A stretch of DNA of 64,000 bases from an uncultured Gammaproteobacteria bacterium. Its GTDB lineage: Bacteria; Patescibacteriota; Microgenomatia; UBA8517. The notes beneath the pieces are model-generated. The model saw only the letters and a program-made list of their open reading frames with translations, did no database searches and was not told the DNA's origin. The stretch spans positions 55,547-119,546 of the forward strand of contig CAYXBV010000001.1 in assembly GCA_964463425.1 (NCBI GenBank), read 5' to 3'. The position numbers and the translations under genes are program-made. This document shows, piece after piece, positions 24,663 through 46,864 of the stretch (position 1 is its first letter; each line of letters opens with the position of its first letter).

Positions 24663-24734
24663 GTATATATAGTATCACCTACTCAATAAAAAACCGCCCG
24701 TTGGCGGATACTGTCTACTAAGCTTAACTTGTAC

Positions 24735-29276: not shown

Positions 29277-29714
29277 ATGCGTAAAGAAATACTATTTGCC
29301 ATTCTCGCAGGAATAACCTTTGGGCTAATCATTGCCTTCGGGGTATGGAGAGCCAATATTGCCTTGAGACCTGAGGGGGCAAACACAACAGAAGACGGCA
29401 CCGCTTCAGAAATAGTTCCAGCAGATTTTGGAATAACAATTGCCAAGCCCGAAAACTACCAAGTCATCACATCTTCCCCAACTGTTCTTACCGGTATTAC
29501 TAAGCCAAACGTACTGCTAGTAACTTCAACTGAAAACGAAGATTATGTTGTAAAGACAAACGGCGATGGTGAATTTGAAGTTGAAATTGATGTTGTCGGT
29601 GGAATAAATGAAGTTATCTTAACAGCCTTTGACACAGATGGGACAGAAACAGAAGAAAGACTAACCCTTATATACTCATCTGAACTTACAAAGCAAGAGG
29701 AGGAAGAAAACTAA
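29277..29714 (+). CDS. Hypothetical secreted/membrane-anchored protein
   Basis: N-terminal signal/TM; stop overlaps the next start (TAATG). Confidence 0.45.
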   Translation: MRKEILFAILAGITFGLIIAFGVWRANIALRPEGANTTEDGTASEIVPADFGITIAKPENYQVITSSPTVLTGITKPNVLLVTSTENEDYVVKTNGDGEFEVEIDVVGGINEVILTAFDTDGTETEERLTLIYSSELTKQEEEEN

Positions 29715-30364
29715 TGAAAAAAATACTTATATTTTTGTCATTATTAATATTAATTACCACGACTGCTTATGTTGCCTTAGCCCAAGAAACATCTACAGAA
29801 GAAGCAAACTCAGTTAGAGATACCGTTCAAAAGAAAGTCGAAGAAGCAAGAACCGTTCCTTTTGCCTATATTGGCACTGTTACCGACATAGCTGAACAAA
29901 CAATACAAATTAACAAATTTATCTTTAGTAGCACTAACGAGGATGCTGGAGAGATCCAACAAATTTCAGTTGATGAAGAAAATACGGATTTTGTAAAAAT
30001 AACCAAAAACACAACTGTGGTGAATTTTTCAGATTTAGCCATTGGTGATTTTGTTATTGCCATGGGATACAGAAATGGCAATAGTGTTCTAGAAGGATCT
30101 CGAATACTGATTACTACCGCTCCTGAACCCACCACTCGAAAAGCTGTCTTTGGTGAACCGACTGAAATAGGCAAGAAAACACTAACTATAACTGCATTAT
30201 CAGGCAAAGAATGGGAAGTTGAATTCGGCTCAAAATGGGTTGGCCCCGAACTTGATAACATTCAAGATGAAGATAAAATAATTGTTGTAGGTACAACTGA
30301 GGGCAATACACTCAGTGCCAGATTTATACACATAATTACTCCAGCAGTAGAAACAACTCAATAA
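29714..30364 (+). CDS. Hypothetical secreted protein
   Basis: Signal peptide (...AYVALAQE); translationally coupled to the upstream ORF. Confidence 0.45.
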   Translation: MKKILIFLSLLILITTTAYVALAQETSTEEANSVRDTVQKKVEEARTVPFAYIGTVTDIAEQTIQINKFIFSSTNEDAGEIQQISVDEENTDFVKITKNTTVVNFSDLAIGDFVIAMGYRNGNSVLEGSRILITTAPEPTTRKAVFGEPTEIGKKTLTITALSGKEWEVEFGSKWVGPELDNIQDEDKIIVVGTTEGNTLSARFIHIITPAVETTQ

Positions 30365-30365
30365 T

Positions 30366-30394
30366 TTGACTACACGATTTCACTAAAGTATCAT
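30366..30394 (+). promoter_or_regulatory. Sigma70-like promoter for the hisS leader (-35 TTGACT 30366-30371, 17-nt spacer, -10 TATCAT 30389-30394)
   Basis: Seen in sequence. Confidence 0.4.
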
Positions 30395-30400
30395 ACCCTC

Positions 30401-30521
30401 ATTATGAGAAAGCAATCTAACATGCAATTACATTTTCACCCATCAGCCTGAAGTTGGGTGGTAATTTGCGTGGTTAACTTACCAGCCAACAGGCTGGTTT
30501 TTTAGTGGAGAAACAGATAAC
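30401..30521 (+). promoter_or_regulatory. hisS 5' leader with an intrinsic terminator (CCAGCC-AACA-GGCTGG + TTTTTT, 30482-30503), an upstream anti-terminator segment CAGCCTG (30444-30450), a T-box-like GGGTGGTA (30456-30463) and a 15-codon mini-ORF with two His codons (30404-30451)
   Basis: Seen in sequence; alternative pairings 30444-30450:30490-30496 versus 30482-30487:30492-30497. Confidence 0.45.
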
Positions 30522-31781
30522 ATGATAAATAACATGGGAAATACAAATAATTCAAAAATGCAGACTCTAAAAGGGTTTAGAGATTTTTTGCCTAAGAAAA
30601 TGGCTATCAGGCAAGAAGTTGCAAATCGTCTCAAAACCGTCTTTGAGAAATACGGGTTTGCAGAACTTCAAACACCTTCCTTGGAATATCAAGAGGTTCT
30701 TCGCGGCAAGTACGGGGAAGCAGCTGAGAAATTAATGTATCTATTTGAAGACCCAGGCGGAAGGGGTGTTGGGTTACGTTATGACTTAACCGTTCCCCTA
30801 GCACGCGTAATTGCGTCAAATCAAAACTTGCCTAAACCATTCAAAAGATACCAAATACAGCCAGCTTGGCGAGCAGAAAAACCACAAAAGGGACGATATC
30901 GAGAATTTACTCAGTGCGACATAGACATTGTAGGCTCGGATTCGCCCATGGCTGACGCAGAAATTCTAGCTATTACTTCCGATGTTTTAAAGGCGCTTGA
31001 ATTCTCATCCTTTAGAATTAAGGTTAATAGTCGACAAGTCCTTTTCTCTTCAATGAAAAAGGTCGGACTACCAGAAGAAAAATGGGCCACCGTTATTCAA
31101 TCAATCGATAAGTTGGATAAAAAGGGGCAAGAGGGTGTTGAAAAAGAACTCTCTGAAAAGGGACTGACAGAAAAAGAAGTAACTGCTGTACTAACTGAAA
31201 TCCAGGGAGCAAAACCCAACGATTTTCTGAAAGAGGTAATTAAAAACGCAGAGAAAATGGGAGCTAAAAATATTGAATTTTCGCCGACGCTTTCCAGAGG
31301 TTTAGATTATTACACTGGTCCTATTTTTGAAACAGTCGTCGACAAACCTAAAATCGGATCAATTACTGGTGGAGGTAGATATGATGAATTACTAAGCACT
31401 CTGGGCGGACCAGACTTGCCAGCCACCGGCACATCGTTTGGACTCGACAGACTGGCCGATGTTATTGAAGAACTAGATTTATGGCCAAACATTGCGGAAA
31501 CTCCCACGGCTGTTTTGGTAACCATTTTTGCACCCGAATTATTAGACGAGTCACTTAAGATTGCAAACATGCTTCGAGAGGAAGACATTAACACCGAAGT
31601 CTATCTCAATAGTAGTGCCAAGCTCGACAAGCAACTGAAATATGCCGATCGAAAAAATATTCCCTGGGTAATTATTATTGGTCCCGAGGAAATTAAGACT
31701 GACAAAGCAGTTCTTAAAAACCTAGCCAACAGGGAACAAAAAACTATTTCTATTAATAATCTTACCAACGAACTACGATGA
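30522..31781 (+). CDS. hisS: Histidine--tRNA ligase (alternative start at 30559, MQTLKGFRD)
   Basis: Class II aaRS motifs; N-terminal HisRS signature KGFRDFLP; stop TGA overlaps the next ATG (ATGA). Confidence 0.9.
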   Translation: MINNMGNTNNSKMQTLKGFRDFLPKKMAIRQEVANRLKTVFEKYGFAELQTPSLEYQEVLRGKYGEAAEKLMYLFEDPGGRGVGLRYDLTVPLARVIASNQNLPKPFKRYQIQPAWRAEKPQKGRYREFTQCDIDIVGSDSPMADAEILAITSDVLKALEFSSFRIKVNSRQVLFSSMKKVGLPEEKWATVIQSIDKLDKKGQEGVEKELSEKGLTEKEVTAVLTEIQGAKPNDFLKEVIKNAEKMGAKNIEFSPTLSRGLDYYTGPIFETVVDKPKIGSITGGGRYDELLSTLGGPDLPATGTSFGLDRLADVIEELDLWPNIAETPTAVLVTIFAPELLDESLKIANMLREEDINTEVYLNSSAKLDKQLKYADRKNIPWVIIIGPEEIKTDKAVLKNLANREQKTISINNLTNELR

Positions 31782-32692
31782 ATCCTCATCGGCTACGAGC
31801 CTATATCTATTTAATAGTTGTTGCCGCGATATGGGGTATCGCTGGCCCAATTATTAAATTCACCCTACCTAGTCTTCCCCCTCTCATATTTCTTACTTAT
31901 CGGTTTCTACTTTCAACAGTTACTTTCTTGCCTATTGCTTTATTAAAAAAAGCCAAAAGACCAGCCAAAGCTAAAGACTTTATTACCTTAACCATAATCG
32001 CCCTGCTAGGTTCTAGCATCAATCTTAGTTTTATTTTCTACGGATATAGTTTCACCACTGCTCTTGATGCCTCACTGCTTTCAGCCACGGGTCCTATATT
32101 TGTCGTAACCGCCAGCGCATTATTTTTAAAAGAAAGAGTTACCAAAAAAGAAAAGATTGGCATCCTTATCGCTTTTCTTGGCACATTAGCAATTGTATTT
32201 CAACCCATTGCTGGAAACAAAGCCCTTGTCTATGAAAACATTTTTGGCAATTTTCTAATTATCGCCTCAAAACTAACCTGGGTTTTATATATTCTTCTTA
32301 CCAAATCTGCTCTAAAAAGAAAATTTGATCCTCTTTATATGACGATGTACACGTTCTTTGTGGGTTTTGTAACTCTACTTCCCTTAGCCATTATTCAGGC
32401 AGGATCGTTTTTTAAATTGGCCACATTAATTATCAAAACCCCTATACAAGCACACCTGGGCGTCGTCTATATGGCCTTATTGTCAGGCTCACTGGCCTAC
32501 TTTCTTTACCAAAAGGCTCAAAAAACTATTGAGGCCTCAGAGGCAACTCTCTTTATGTATCTTAGTCCCCTTTTCGCCGTCCCCTTAGCCGTGTTCTGGC
32601 TTGGTGAAGAAATTACCTCTTTTTATCTTATCGGAGCAGCTATAGTAACTACAGGTGTAATAATTGCCGGACACAAAAGAAGAACAAAATAG
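31778..32692 (+). CDS. EamA/DMT superfamily transporter
   Basis: 10 TM helices; two EamA repeats. Confidence 0.8.
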   Translation: MNPHRLRAYIYLIVVAAIWGIAGPIIKFTLPSLPPLIFLTYRFLLSTVTFLPIALLKKAKRPAKAKDFITLTIIALLGSSINLSFIFYGYSFTTALDASLLSATGPIFVVTASALFLKERVTKKEKIGILIAFLGTLAIVFQPIAGNKALVYENIFGNFLIIASKLTWVLYILLTKSALKRKFDPLYMTMYTFFVGFVTLLPLAIIQAGSFFKLATLIIKTPIQAHLGVVYMALLSGSLAYFLYQKAQKTIEASEATLFMYLSPLFAVPLAVFWLGEEITSFYLIGAAIVTTGVIIAGHKRRTK

Positions 32693-33080: not shown

Positions 33081-33776
33081 ATGAATAGTCAAAACGAAAA
33101 AGCATATATCGAAATCAGGTCTGCTGCTGGCGGAGATGAGGCAAAAATTTGGGCAAGTGACCTAATCAGAATGTATACCCGTTTTGCTACTAAAAACAAT
33201 TGGAAGATAAGCAATATTGCTGAGAATACTATACAAATCACTGGACCAAATGTTTTTAAGCTACTAGAAAATGAGTCTGGTGTACACAGGGTTCAGCGGG
33301 TACCAACAACCGAAAGGCGAGGAAGAATTCATACATCAACGGCAACTGTGGCTGTTCTACCTGAAATTAAAAAGGGTGAAATTGAAGTTGATCCACGAGA
33401 TCTCGAAGTTCAATTCTATCGTTCTGGTGGTCATGGAGGCCAAAATGTTAACAAGGTGTCAACAGCCGTTCGATTAACCCACAAGCCAACTGGAATTGTT
33501 ATTTCTTGTCAACAAGAAAGAACACAACTCCAAAATCGTGAAATTGCAACCGATCTTTTGAAAGCCAAACTTTGGGAAAAATTAGAAGCCGAAAAAGAAA
33601 AAACCGTTGCTGGATATAGAAGCGCTATTGGCCGCGGAATGAGATCTGAAAAAATTAGAACATACAACTACCCCCAAAACAGGGTTACGGATCATCGAAT
33701 TAAAAAATCTTGGGGCAATTTAGATGCAGTTGTTAATGGTGATCTTAAAAAGATAGTTAATTTCGTAAAAAAATAA
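33081..33776 (+). CDS. prfA: Peptide chain release factor 1-like, N-terminally truncated (domain 1 absent)
   Basis: PTT (PxT) codon-recognition tripeptide in [17 protein letters not shown]; GGQ motif ([11 protein letters not shown]); begins at the equivalent of about residue 110 of E. coli RF1. Confidence 0.8.
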
Positions 33777-37911: not shown

Positions 37912-38565
37912 TCATTTTATACTTTCTAGTGCCTTGGACGTTATTTCGTTATAGCTATAAATAGTTTTATTAGCCTTGCCCAATAATTTAGCATGATCAT
38001 CACCTCTTGCTATGGCAATTACTTTCATACCGGCGTCTCTTGCCGCAACTATACCCGCCTCCGTATCCTCCATAACCAAACAATTTCCAGGGTCTATCCC
38101 TAATTTGTGTGTCGTTAAAACGAATATTTCAGGATCTGGTTTTTTACAATTTACCTCTTCAGCTGTAGTTATTGTTTCAAACACTCCTTCTAAGTCTAGT
38201 GTGTCAAAAACTTTCTCAACAATAGGCCAATTATTAGACGTTGCTAAAGCAACAAGAATCCCAGAATCTTTTAGGTCTTTAATAAAATCAATTACCCCCT
38301 CTTTAAGAGTTACTCTTGATAAAAGCCTAAGATACGCTTCCTGAGTTTCACTCGAAAGTTTTTTTATACTCTTTTTTGTTTTTATTTTGTGTTGTGGAAT
38401 TAATTTTCGCCAATTTTCATCCATGCCAATACCCTGTATGTGAGGAAAATCTGAGTTAGTTTCTATCCCAAGATTTGATAATACTTCCTTGAAGGCAATC
38501 CCATACTCATCTTCGTTATCCAATACCGTCCCATCTAAATCAAATATTACTGCTAGTAGTTTCAT
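37912..38565 (-). CDS. HAD-IA family hydrolase (beta-phosphoglucomutase/phosphatase-like)
   Basis: Motif I IFDLDGTVLDNE; motif IV region (AIARGDD). Confidence 0.8.
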   Translation of the reverse strand: MKLLAVIFDLDGTVLDNEDEYGIAFKEVLSNLGIETNSDFPHIQGIGMDENWRKLIPQHKIKTKKSIKKLSSETQEAYLRLLSRVTLKEGVIDFIKDLKDSGILVALATSNNWPIVEKVFDTLDLEGVFETITTAEEVNCKKPDPEIFVLTTHKLGIDPGNCLVMEDTEAGIVAARDAGMKVIAIARGDDHAKLLGKANKTIYSYNEITSKALESIK

Positions 38566-39986
38566 TTTTTTATTATTGTAACTTTGGGGCCAGTGGAGGT
38601 ATCTTCAACTAAATACCCTTTCTCGAGTAATGCTTTTCTTTTTACGTCTGCCTCTTCATATTTGCCTTCTTTTCTCAATACTTCTCTTTCTTCTGCCAGC
38701 TTTAAAACATCAGCTGGTATTTTAACTTTTTTAATCTCATATTCTCTTAGCCCCAGTCCCAAAACCTCATCAAAAGACAATGCTAAATCGTATTTATCTC
38801 CGGACGGAATATTGCTTTTCAACATTTCCCACAATACTGCAAGCGCCCTGGGCGTATTTAGGTCGTCATTGATAGCCGTCGTAAATCTAATCCTGTAATC
38901 GTCAACTTTCTTTTGTTTCTCTGGCGATAAAGTTGTTCTAATAGATTTCCCCCTATACCCCGCCACTTGTTCTCTAAGCTTCTTAAGAGCTGTTTGAGCA
39001 GCCCCTAAACTATCCCATGTAAAGTTAAGTGAATCCCTGTAGTGAGCGGTTAAATAGAGGTAACGAAGAGCTATTGGATCAAAACCTTTTTTCTTCAAAT
39101 CCGAAACAGTATAAAAATTGTTTAAGCTCTTACTCATTCTTTTGCCATCAACCTTAAGAAAAGTTACATGGATCCAATAGCGAACAAAGGGTTTACCTGT
39201 TGCCGCCTCTGATTGGGCAATTTCATTTGGGTGATGAGTAGACCTAAGGTCTTCGCCTCCTAAATGAATGTCAAAACTCTCTCCCAGATATTTCATGCTC
39301 ATGGCAGAACATTCTATGTGCCATCCGGGAAAACCTATTCCCCAAGGGCTCTCCCACTCCATCTGTCTTTCGCCTGGGTTTTTAGAAAATTTCCACAAAG
39401 CAAAATCTCTTGCATTTTTCTTTTCTGGATTCTCTCTCACTCTTGCCCCTTCTAATACCTGATCAAGTGTTGATAATTCTCCATATTTTTTGCCAGTCTT
39501 CTCTTCGAAGCCCTTTGTGTCAAAATATATTCCATCCGACGTTTTATACGTAACTCTTTTTTTCTCAAGAGTTTCAATTAACGCAATTTGTTCCTTAATA
39601 TGATCTGTGGCCTTCGTAAATTGAGATAATTCTTGCAAATGCAAAGCCTTAAAGTCAGCTAAAAATGTGTTCGTGTAGTGTTTAGTAATATCTGTAGCTG
39701 TTTTTCCTTTTTCTTTTGCTGATTTTTCAACTTTGTCTTCACCAACGTCCGAATCGCCCACAAGGTGACCTACGTCTGTTAAATTCATGATGTACTTTAC
39801 CTTGTACCCATTGAACTGGAGTGTTCTATAAAGAATGTCAGCAACTGCATATGTGCGAAAATTTCCGATAGTTGCATATGAGTATACTGTTGGACCACAA
39901 GCATACATACCAACCTCTTCTGAGTTAATGGGTTCGAATTTTTCTTTTTTCCCAGTAAGACTATTTGTTAAATATAAATCAGCCAT
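38562..39986 (-). CDS. cysS: Cysteine--tRNA ligase
   Basis: CGPTVYSYATIGNFRTY (HIGH region variant); KMSKS; 474 aa. Confidence 0.9.
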   Translation of the reverse strand: MADLYLTNSLTGKKEKFEPINSEEVGMYACGPTVYSYATIGNFRTYAVADILYRTLQFNGYKVKYIMNLTDVGHLVGDSDVGEDKVEKSAKEKGKTATDITKHYTNTFLADFKALHLQELSQFTKATDHIKEQIALIETLEKKRVTYKTSDGIYFDTKGFEEKTGKKYGELSTLDQVLEGARVRENPEKKNARDFALWKFSKNPGERQMEWESPWGIGFPGWHIECSAMSMKYLGESFDIHLGGEDLRSTHHPNEIAQSEAATGKPFVRYWIHVTFLKVDGKRMSKSLNNFYTVSDLKKKGFDPIALRYLYLTAHYRDSLNFTWDSLGAAQTALKKLREQVAGYRGKSIRTTLSPEKQKKVDDYRIRFTTAINDDLNTPRALAVLWEMLKSNIPSGDKYDLALSFDEVLGLGLREYEIKKVKIPADVLKLAEEREVLRKEGKYEEADVKRKALLEKGYLVEDTSTGPKVTIIKK

Positions 39987-45637: not shown

Positions 45638-46864
45638 TTATTTTAATCTTTTTATTACTTGATCTAACGTAATTATTTCAATTTTTCCGCTAGCTCGATC
45701 TTTCCATTCAATCTTGTCTCCAGTTTTGGTCGAGACAACAATTCTGTATGGAATTCCTATCAAGTCTACATCTGCAAATTTGCCACCGGCGGTTATGTCC
45801 CTATCGTCCCAAAGAACATCTATTTTTTCTTTTCGGAGTTGTTCATAAATCTTTTTGCCTTTTTCTTTTTCATTTATATCAATCAAGTGAACGTCGTAAG
45901 GAGCAATTTGTGAGTACCATATAATTCCTTTATCATCATGACTGACTTCTACCAACGCTCCCATAACCCTTGTACAACCGATGCCGTAGCTGGCAAACCA
46001 AACAGGTTTTTTCTTCCCATCCTCATCAGTGTAATAAACTTTCATTCTTTCTGCGTACCAGGTACCTAGTGGGAAAATATTACCGACTTCAATAGCTTTC
46101 GATTCAATAATCTTTCCTTTCTTGCACTTAGGACATTTTTTACCCACTTTGTCTCCCAGTAATTCTTTGTTTGCTCCCCAATTACATTTATCGCAATAAT
46201 AGATTGTGTCTTCTCCTCCTTTGGCTAATACCTGAAACTCATGGGTATTACCCTCCGTAAACACACCACCTGGAGCATCGGTTACTTTTACATCAAGCCC
46301 TATTCTTTTGAATGCTTTTAGGTATGCCTCTTTTACCTTTTCGTAATATGCCCACATGTCTTCTTCTGTCGTGTGTGCACTGTATAAATCTTTCATCATG
46401 AATTCTCTGCCTCGTAGAATACCACTTCTGGGTCTTGGTTCGTTTCTAAATTTTGTAGAGAAGTGGTAAAGAGATAAGGGGAGGTCTTTGTGGCTATTGA
46501 TATTTTTTCTAAGAAGATCCATAACAACTTCTTCGTGAGTAAAAGATAGAGCAAACTCTTTGCCCTTTGTATCTTTAAATTGATACATTACTTCCTTTGC
46601 TTTATCCCACCTGCCTGTTTGGTCCCATATTTTTCTAGGATGAAGAAGGGGCATTAGCATTTCTTGTCCACCAACAGCGTTCATTTCTTCGCGAATGATT
46701 TGATTTATTTTTGTTACAACTTTCCAGCCAAGAGGAAGAAGTGTCCAGCTTCCTGCCATTAACTGATCTATAAAACCCGCCCTAACAAGCAATTGGTGAT
46801 TAGCACTTTCCGCCTCTTTTGGCGATTCTTTTCTAGTCTTTGGAAATAGTTTAGATTGTAACAT
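45638..46864 (-). CDS. proS: Proline--tRNA ligase, minimal bacterial form without INS editing domain, with a Cys4 zinc-ribbon insertion
   Basis: SANHQLLVRAGFI, FTHEEVV, FRNEPRPRSGILRGREFMMKD class II motifs; CDKC...CPKC. Confidence 0.85.
   Translation of the reverse strand: MLQSKLFPKTRKESPKEAESANHQLLVRAGFIDQLMAGSWTLLPLGWKVVTKINQIIREEMNAVGGQEMLMPLLHPRKIWDQTGRWDKAKEVMYQFKDTKGKEFALSFTHEEVVMDLLRKNINSHKDLPLSLYHFSTKFRNEPRPRSGILRGREFMMKDLYSAHTTEEDMWAYYEKVKEAYLKAFKRIGLDVKVTDAPGGVFTEGNTHEFQVLAKGGEDTIYYCDKCNWGANKELLGDKVGKKCPKCKKGKIIESKAIEVGNIFPLGTWYAERMKVYYTDEDGKKKPVWFASYGIGCTRVMGALVEVSHDDKGIIWYSQIAPYDVHLIDINEKEKGKKIYEQLRKEKIDVLWDDRDITAGGKFADVDLIGIPYRIVVSTKTGDKIEWKDRASGKIEIITLDQVIKRLK

Follow-up and report, generated by a model that had tools for sequence, protein, structure and literature searches.

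A putative histidine-responsive leader-peptide attenuator upstream of hisS in an uncultivated Patescibacteria bacterium

Patescibacteria (the Candidate Phyla Radiation, CPR) are uncultivated bacteria with reduced genomes and mostly without amino acid synthesis, and almost nothing is known of gene regulation in the CPR. We analyzed a 64,000-nt stretch of DNA from such a bacterium (contig CAYXBV010000001.1, hereafter the window; G+C content 36-40%) and focused on the region directly 5' of hisS, the gene for histidine--tRNA ligase (HisRS). The encoded protein scored 401.6 bits against the TIGR00442 hisS model (cutoff 286.75) and is therefore a true histidine--tRNA ligase, not HisZ. A promoter, a short open reading frame (mini-ORF), His codons within it and an intrinsic terminator precede the gene, and all of them lie where an earlier reading of the letters alone (the sequence-only reading) had placed them (Table 1). 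Judged from these features and from their counterparts in related genomes, the region is very likely a histidine-responsive, ribosome-mediated (leader-peptide) transcription attenuator of hisS.

The promoter agrees with the consensus at 10 of 12 positions (TTGACT-17-TATCAT), and promoters at the same position are also present in relatives. The short leader ORF is rich in codons for the amino acid to which the downstream gene is related: the peptide MRKQSNMQLHFHPSA has 2 His among the 14 residues past Met1, compared with 1.6% His in the proteins of the window, and the codons are CAT at 30431-30433 and CAC at 30437-30439. The terminator that stands between this ORF and hisS is the cleanest in a 5-kb scan. 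The 17 nt from its T-tract to the hisS ATG, which include a GGAG Shine-Dalgarno sequence at 30508-30511, leave no room for a second promoter, and none intervenes. The leader folded better than shuffled sequences (z = -2.27, with 3 of 200 shuffles folding as well). In the 5-kb scan, promoter-like and terminator-like sites were not enriched over shuffles, and each element taken one by one could be chance; their combination is non-random because it recurs in divergent relatives.

Table 1. Features of the hisS leader and of the adjoining genes in the window
Feature	Position	Strand	Remarks
-35 hexamer TTGACT	30366..30371	+	begins 2 nt past the stop codon of the upstream 216-aa ORF
-10 hexamer TATCAT	30389..30394	+	17-nt spacer; ends 9 nt before the leader ORF ATG
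Leader peptide ORF MRKQSNMQLHFHPSA	30404..30451	+	15 codons, then TGA (30449-30451)
Regulatory His codons CAT (codon 10), TTT, CAC (codon 12)	30431..30439	+	proposed ribosome stall site
Segment 1, anti-antiterminator 5' strand	30421..30444	+	codons 6-14 including both His; pairs with segment 2 without ribosome
Segment 2	30453..30472	+	30453-30464 (GUUGGGUGGUAA) is the antiterminator 5' strand; entire segment pairs with segment 1
Segment 3, UUACCAGCCAAC	30479..30490	+	spans the terminator 5' arm, with 2 nt ahead of it and 3 loop bases
Intrinsic terminator hairpin ACCAGCC/AACA/GGCTGGT	30481..30498	+	7 bp, 5 G-C, -12.3 kcal/mol
Terminator T6 tract	30499..30504	+	
hisS, histidine--tRNA ligase, 419 aa	30522..31781	+	Pfam tRNA-synt_His and HGTP_anticodon
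EamA-family transporter gene	31778..32692	+	EamA 2.2e-49; overlaps the hisS stop codon by 4 nt

The window HisRS is at most 61% identical to anything else in the two collections searched. The metagenome scan returned the window's own contig, Ga0075122_10000124, at 100% identity (locus L081; loci are designated by L and a number) and nothing else above 61%. The best HisRS matches were from metagenome-assembled genomes of Patescibacteria/Microgenomates (Shapiro-, Woese-, Gottesman-, Roizman-, Pace- and Levybacteria), and many automatically assembled genomes among the matches bear implausible labels, for example 'uncultured Gammaproteobacteria'. Comparison of the leader with 80 loci by blastn-short and nhmmer recovered only L009, L021 and a weak L063 (three weak nhmmer matches). 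Both L009 and L021 contain a consensus promoter, a few nt later an ATG mini-ORF (encoding MRSLSLHHHHSHE and MLITRNILNHCHTNF, respectively), a G-rich segment, a terminator, tRNA-His(GUG) and hisS. As the leader family is too divergent for sequence search, we used an architecture scan instead, in which a strong terminator had to be preceded by a mini-ORF with a His cluster and duplicates were removed. The device was found in 33 of 141 unique hisS loci of related metagenome-assembled genomes, with HisRS 43-61% identical, and further device loci were found by eye (L086, L149 and probably L024). The leader peptides are 12-26 aa long and have in common only Met1 and HH, HHH, HHHH or HxH around codon 10; HxH variants also occur in L021, L147, L152 and L079, the remaining leaders having HH to HHHH. 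His accounts for 16.7% of the residues in these leaders, a set selected for His, versus 1.6% in the window proteins. Thus the comparison of related hisS leaders for a mini-ORF and His codons, which the sequence-only reading had proposed, bore it out: both recur in about 35 divergent relatives.

We also performed an unbiased scan of ATG mini-ORFs that end 0-90 nt before a strong terminator, counting clusters for all 20 amino acids one by one. On the hisS strand there were 32 His clusters versus 7 on the opposite strand, and no enrichment was seen for Ile (18 versus 21) or Ser (28 versus 44). Read in the other two frames, CAYCAY would encode Ile and Ser. Since His is enriched and Ile and Ser are not, the CAY repeats are in frame with the upstream ATG and represent more than a structural motif.

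These surveys bear on an account that involves no regulation, in which the hairpin terminates the upstream operon (29277-30364) and the promoter-like site and the mini-ORF are products of chance. The upstream ORFs do lie on the same strand and end at 30364, and the promoter- and terminator-like matches of the 5-kb scan did not exceed the shuffles. Under this account, however, hisS would be left without a promoter, with 17 nt from the T-tract to its ATG, whereas the same package recurs across differing neighbourhoods, including behind a divergent tRNA-Ala gene, and the His enrichment, the spacing and the covariation described below are non-random. A divergent tRNA-Ala(CGC) on the minus strand, about 100-650 nt upstream of the leader, was found in L043, L049, L056, L061, L078, L079 and L133, a subgroup with peptides of the type MTKVAVxLAHHHxLR or MLxxxxxxxHHHTLL; in L043, L049, L056, L061, L078 and L079 the terminator therefore cannot belong to an upstream gene. 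We accordingly give the absence of regulation a slim chance.

An attenuator of the kind proposed here also has mutually exclusive pairings, and these are present in the window. Segment 3 has two possible partners: with segment 2 it gives an antiterminator (11 bp, one G·G mismatch), and with segment 4 (the 3' arm) the terminator. The main antiterminator is formed by GUUGGGUGGUAA (30453-30464) and UUACCAGCCAAC (30479-30490) and sequesters the 5' arm of the terminator, so that the two structures exclude each other. The divergence of the family led us to evaluate this pairing by shuffles and by cross-locus permutation rather than by a covariance model. For each leader, the best duplex of the terminator 5' arm and loop with the spacer, the sequence lying between the last His codon and the terminator, was compared with those from 300 shuffles of the spacer (p<=0.05). 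The window duplex of segments 2 and 3 reached -17.2 kcal/mol versus -8.3±2.3 kcal/mol in shuffles, none of the 300 being as good, and the antiterminator was better than shuffled spacers in 28 of 33 leaders (mean z -3.5).

The terminator arms vary from locus to locus (ACCAGCC, CCCGCC, CCTCTTTG, CCTCCG, CCCGCAC, CTCCCGCG, ATCCCC and others), and the spacers vary with them. Pairing of spacer and arm from the same locus gave -15.2 kcal/mol, compared with -10.3 kcal/mol across loci, and 0 of 10,000 permutations reached the observed mean; for the window spacer, its own terminator arm ranked first of 33. A compensatory case is seen in L086, where the arms are ACCAACC/GGTTGGT and segment 2 carries a matching GUUGGUUGGUU, as opposed to ACCAGCC/GGCTGGT in the window and L009. 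Because the spacers match their own terminator arms, GGGUGGUA of the window is the 5' strand of the antiterminator, and its G-richness mirrors the C-rich terminator arm.

This result bears directly on GGGUGGUA, which the sequence-only reading had regarded as T-box-like. In that proposal the leader is a tRNA-sensing riboswitch, in which UGGN within GGGUGGUA pairs with NCCA of uncharged tRNA-His and thereby stabilises the antiterminator. GGGUGGUA does sit in the antiterminator strand (the T-box-like GGGTGGTA is present at 30456-30463, within segment 2), and it resembles the core of the T-box sequence (AGGGUGGNACCGCG). Moreover, hisS is T-box-regulated in Firmicutes (PMC2965389). However, neither T-box (RF00230) nor His_leader (RF00514), nor any other Rfam family in the leader, matched positions 30200-30700 at E<=10 with permissive filters. 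At the gathering score, Rfam 15 reported four tRNAs only in the window and tRNAs only in 40 related hisS loci, so the Rfam search that the sequence-only reading had named as a check gave no RF00230 match in the leader, the window or the relatives. Only about 50 nt, all of them ORF, separate the predicted transcript start from GGGUGGUA, without Stem I, specifier loop or K-turn. GGGUGGUA itself was found in the window only; relatives have GUUGGUUGG, GUGUGGGU, GGGGAG, AUUGGGG or a further variant instead, and each of these is complementary to the terminator arm at the same locus. The homologous segment thus tracks the terminator arm of each locus, and no conserved UGGN in an antiterminator bulge was found. 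These results largely refute a T-box-like device, to which we assign a vanishingly small probability.

The same sequence turnover argues against a leader whose hairpins are bound by HisRS or another protein in an autoregulatory loop. Several synthetases autoregulate by binding tRNA-like leader structures, parallels being operator mimicry at E. coli thrS and, for a ribosomal protein complex, the attenuation of Bacillus rplJL by L10(L12)4, and the apical loop of the window antiterminator contains GUG. Yet no tRNA-His-like element is conserved, the hairpin sequences are wholly different between loci, and protein binding leaves the in-frame His codons, the ATG at the 5' end and the fixed 14-nt spacing described below unexplained; we regard such a mechanism as exceedingly improbable.

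In the leader-peptide attenuator favoured here, segment 2 has a second partner upstream, and this anti-antiterminator overlaps the regulatory codons in the window (30421-30444 with 30453-30472). The duplex of segments 1 and 2 gave -20.2 kcal/mol versus -13.2±2.6 kcal/mol in shuffles (p=0.013). The sequence-only reading had assigned the antiterminator role to a different pairing, that of CAGCCTG (30444-30450) with CAGGCTG at 30490-30496, which comprises two loop bases and five bases of the 3' arm. This pairing is genuine and significant in the window (-15.1 versus -7.1 kcal/mol in shuffles, 0 of 300 as good), but it is not conserved, being significant in only 4 of 33 leaders, and as a conserved switch it was ruled out on that ground. 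It is probably a by-product of the resemblance between segments 1 and 3, each of which is complementary to segment 2. When stalled at His12, a ribosome would also hide most of CAGCCTG. With the ribosome stalled at His10, the pairing can extend the window antiterminator to -21.9 kcal/mol in folding, and its role would at most be limited to this extension.

We then compared the position of segment 2 with that of the codons. In the window, counting from the first base of each codon, segment 2 starts 15 nt past the last His codon and 3 nt past the stop codon. Across the 33 leaders, whose spacing statistics are conditional on their selection for a His cluster and a terminator, the distance from the first base of the last His codon to segment 2 had a median of 14 nt (IQR, interquartile range, 13-15) and was within 12-17 nt in 25. 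The distance of segment 2 to the stop codon, by comparison, ranged from -29 to +6 nt, a variation of 35 nt in stop position; the stop codon never preceded segment 2 by more than 6 nt and otherwise lay beyond the start of the segment. In a class with short ORFs, which includes the window, the stop codon lies 0-6 nt before segment 2; in a class with longer ORFs, the reading frame continues through segment 2. The footprint of a ribosome extends about 12-15 nt downstream. With this footprint, a ribosome holding a His codon in the A site would end just before segment 2 in either class, and one that moved past the His codons would cover it. The geometry expected of an attenuator, in which stalling leaves segment 2 free and arrival at the stop codon covers it, is therefore found.

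From this arrangement we infer a course of events in which transcription start, translation of the ORF, ribosome stalling and regulatory outcome are linked as follows. Transcription would begin about 7 nt past the -10 box, practically at the AUG of the 15-codon ORF, and a ribosome would load at the 5' end of the transcript and trail the polymerase. When His-tRNA(His) is plentiful, the ribosome would reach the UGA at 30449 and its footprint of about 13 nt downstream would cover segment 2 (30453-30464); in folding with a ribosome at the stop codon, the terminator was the only structure possible. Segments 3 and 4 would then form the terminator and transcription would end at T6, 17 nt before hisS. 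When charged tRNA(His) is scarce, the ribosome would stall with CAU(10) or CAC(12) in the A site, covering segment 1 and leaving free segment 2, 15 nt past the last His codon. In folding with a ribosome at the His codon, the antiterminator hairpin (-16.0 kcal/mol, versus -12.3 kcal/mol for the terminator) formed before the 3' arm was transcribed; segment 2 would thus capture the emerging segment 3, no terminator would form and hisS would be transcribed. In folding without a ribosome, the hairpin of segments 1 and 2 (-18.8 kcal/mol) formed first and then the terminator (-12.3 kcal/mol), so that a leader that is not translated would also be terminated. The sequence-only reading had proposed that competing pairings control HisRS through either tRNA or ribosome; the ribosome-mediated form, recurring in about 35 divergent relatives, has held up, and the tRNA-mediated form has not.

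As an observation apart, a Pro codon directly follows the His cluster in the window (30440-30442) and in the leaders of L052, L066, L077, L147 and L035, the His-Pro contexts among the leaders being HFHP, HHHP, HHP, HHPH, HYHP and HHHNPP. Speculatively, Pro at this position could strengthen pausing.

Several points weigh against a ribosome-mediated attenuator, in addition to the selection of the 33 leaders noted above. The pairing of segments 1 and 2 was significant (p<=0.05) in just 10 of 33 leaders, with a mean z of -1.3. The window leader has just two His codons, and these are not adjacent, although the trp leader likewise works with two regulatory codons. To our knowledge, coupling of transcription and translation has not been demonstrated in Patescibacteria. 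Finally, 75% of the loci are without the leader, among them L082, the closest locus by HisRS (60% identical), which has a similar promoter (L082, 2380-2477; TTGACT...TGATATCAT) with the hisS ATG 11 nt past the -10 box, so that hisS itself may be nearly leaderless there. Given L082 and the 75% of loci without the leader, the element is dispensable and often gained or lost, and such changes appear, from these sequences, to occur between fairly close lineages. A G+C-rich version (MVLHALPHHHRTPDS, terminator GGGGCGGCTCAGCCGCCCC) was seen at L069:2852-2941, in a genome labelled Dehalococcoidales whose HisRS is 43% identical; either the label may be wrong or the design may also exist outside Patescibacteria.

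How the leader ORF would be translated is suggested by its promoter. In 29 of 33 leaders, which had not been selected for this spacing, the automatic scan placed the end of the -10 hexamer 6-12 nt ahead of the ATG, and three of the four outliers have TATAAT 6-9 nt upstream of the ATG when inspected by eye. This spacing leaves no room for a Shine-Dalgarno sequence before the leader ORF. The transcript is predicted to start at the AUG or a few nt from it, at about 30401-30403 in the window, and the ORF would then be leaderless or nearly so.

Comparison with known systems places the element among leader-peptide attenuators. Like hisL of E. coli and Salmonella (RF00514), it has a leader peptide with His codons and mutually exclusive hairpins, and it would sense charged tRNA-His by stalling. 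It functions alike yet stands outside that family, with no sequence or covariance-model match in the window or, at E<=10, in the leader. The Patescibacteria leaders have 2-5 His codons versus 7 consecutive ones in hisL, their ORFs are apparently leaderless whereas a Shine-Dalgarno sequence precedes hisL, and their target is a synthetase gene (in relatives also a tRNA gene) rather than a biosynthetic operon. Attenuation of a synthetase gene through its own codons has precedents in pheST, trpS and leuS, whose leaders, as far as is known, have a 5' untranslated region. These precedents, pheST of gamma-proteobacteria (with the leader peptide pheM in E. coli) and Streptomyces trpS and leuS (PMC1262725), share leader-peptide attenuation by cognate codons with the element described here and differ from it in amino acid, phylum and sequence family. 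In Bacillus, a His leader peptide has been predicted upstream of a hisS paralog (hisS*) and of hisZ (Naville & Gautheret 2010, PMC2965389). There, as here, a short ORF with a His run and a premature terminator precede a hisS-family gene; the Bacillus targets, however, are the paralog and hisZ, the main hisS being under a T-box, whereas here the sole hisS (TIGR00442 equivalog) is targeted. The Firmicutes hisS T-box (RF00230) likewise acts on the same gene and answers low charging of tRNA-His by antitermination, but its sensor is RNA-tRNA pairing, and here it would be a translating ribosome, without the defining elements of a T-box.

Parallels to the predicted mode of initiation come from other phyla. 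In Deinococcus deserti, a study of 14 leader peptides described leaderless ones before synthetase genes, such as a 10-aa peptide with 2 Cys upstream of cysS (PMC4007540); in mycobacteria, poly-Cys attenuators with leaderless short ORFs have been described (bioRxiv 10.1101/834739). These systems have an AUG at or beside the transcription start, as is predicted for the present one, and share with it few cognate codons, a 10-15-aa peptide and a synthetase target. The starts in Deinococcus and mycobacteria were mapped experimentally, whereas ours are deduced from the spacing of the -10 box.

The genes found 3' of the attenuators are all histidine-related, being hisS itself, tRNA-His or operons with hisS as the last gene. 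Five relatives have tRNA-His(GUG) and then hisS after the attenuator (L009:1313-1546, L015:2700-2947, L021:407-642, L117:1188-1358 and L086, where the arrangement lies about 250 nt upstream of hisS at 2489). The gap from terminator to tRNA-His is 11-33 nt in L009, L015, L021 and L117, which leaves no room for a promoter before the tRNA gene, and a few tens of nt in L086. In these five relatives the tRNA-His gene thus appears, from its position, to be under leader-peptide attenuation by its own codons; from a limited search, no tRNA gene is known to us to be the immediate product of a leader-peptide attenuator. Separately, L002:1430-1658, L007:1760-1988 and L008:2800-2960 share a structured-looking sequence (…ACGGAAG..AACCGU.AAA…) with a terminator, 5' of tRNA-His/hisS. 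It had no Rfam match at the gathering score and may be the 3' end of an unrecognised non-coding RNA. A HisG-like ORF (MNNKSLKLAIQKGGRLTDD…) comes after the tRNA-His in L007.

Elsewhere the attenuator stands before an operon in which hisS is the last gene. The operon contains a GNAT acetyltransferase and an AstE/AspA-type deacylase in L035:1527-2965 and L063:1604-2982, an M20 peptidase plus a GNAT fusion in L054:311-2990, a class I/II (HisC-like) aminotransferase in L102:1473-2501 and L147:887-1939, and a HAD hydrolase, alone or with a nucleoside hydrolase, in L105:972-2494 and L152:870-2461; L073:269-1693 and L009:1628-2965 are also operons of this type. Several of the encoded proteins had no Pfam match. 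In organisms without histidine biosynthesis, these candidate genes may act in the salvage or release of histidine. In the window, the EamA-family gene that overlaps hisS is probably co-transcribed with it and would probably fall under the same attenuator. Of the 160 loci fetched, 63 have an EamA/DMT homolog directly 3' of hisS and in the same orientation, whether or not the leader is present, and the transporter may be linked to histidine.

The constant association with these genes also informs a reading in which the unit is an independent small gene, encoding a trans-acting sRNA (small RNA) of about 100 nt or a functional 15-aa protein, without cis control of hisS. The unit from promoter to terminator is self-contained, and in Sinorhizobium an attenuator-derived RNA and a leader peptide, rnTrpL and peTrpL, can act in trans (PMC6614838, PMC7298713). 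On the other hand, the peptides share only Met1 and the His cluster, a pattern typical of leader peptides rather than functional proteins, the RNA sequence is conserved only in its pairing potential (the three weak nhmmer matches), and the unit is always immediately 5' of histidine-related genes without an intervening promoter. We therefore hold an independent gene to be very unlikely; a role in trans could be additional to the role in cis and would not replace it.

The mechanism itself is the long-known one of the trp and his leaders, and attenuation of synthetase genes has been described before. What is added here is the phylum, a family that is both broad and regular in its spacing, and targets that include tRNA-His and candidate salvage genes. 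Our search of the literature on attenuation or T-boxes in CPR/Patescibacteria found nothing, and we lean, by a modest margin, towards an undescribed, phylum-wide family of leaderless His attenuators with a small regulon of hisS, tRNA-His and candidate salvage genes. The family is absent from Rfam, so its leaders are currently unannotated. If the interpretation is correct, CPR bacteria adjust HisRS, and in relatives tRNA-His, to the histidine supply by means of a classical ribosome-sensing attenuator. Attenuation of this kind requires tight coupling of transcription and translation, and the spacing of the -10 box suggests leaderless initiation; the element would thus provide sequence-level evidence for both in an unculturable phylum. 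The roughly 35 very divergent versions, which retain only the His codons, the pairing logic and the 14-nt gap from stall site to switch, amount to a natural experiment, in which the gap would be a comparative estimate of the downstream footprint of the ribosome. The genes behind the attenuators offer functional leads for histidine salvage.

No second attenuator was found in the window. The synthetase genes cysS (38562-39986) and proS (45638-46864) lie inside operons, without leaders, and a clean minus-strand terminator at 24694-24707 was rejected as an attenuator, as it merely follows a small zinc-finger-like ORF. Two further genes of the window were noted in passing. The ORF for ribosomal protein L31 (32748-33062, + strand) is about 40 aa longer than the Pfam domain, which it extends beyond. 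A release factor 1 (RF1) homolog of 231 aa (33081-33776, + strand) aligns with positions 102-337 of the 347-position RF1 model, below cutoff, and seems, on this alignment, to be without the N-terminal domain 1, for which there is no room upstream because the L31 gene ends 18 nt before RF1.

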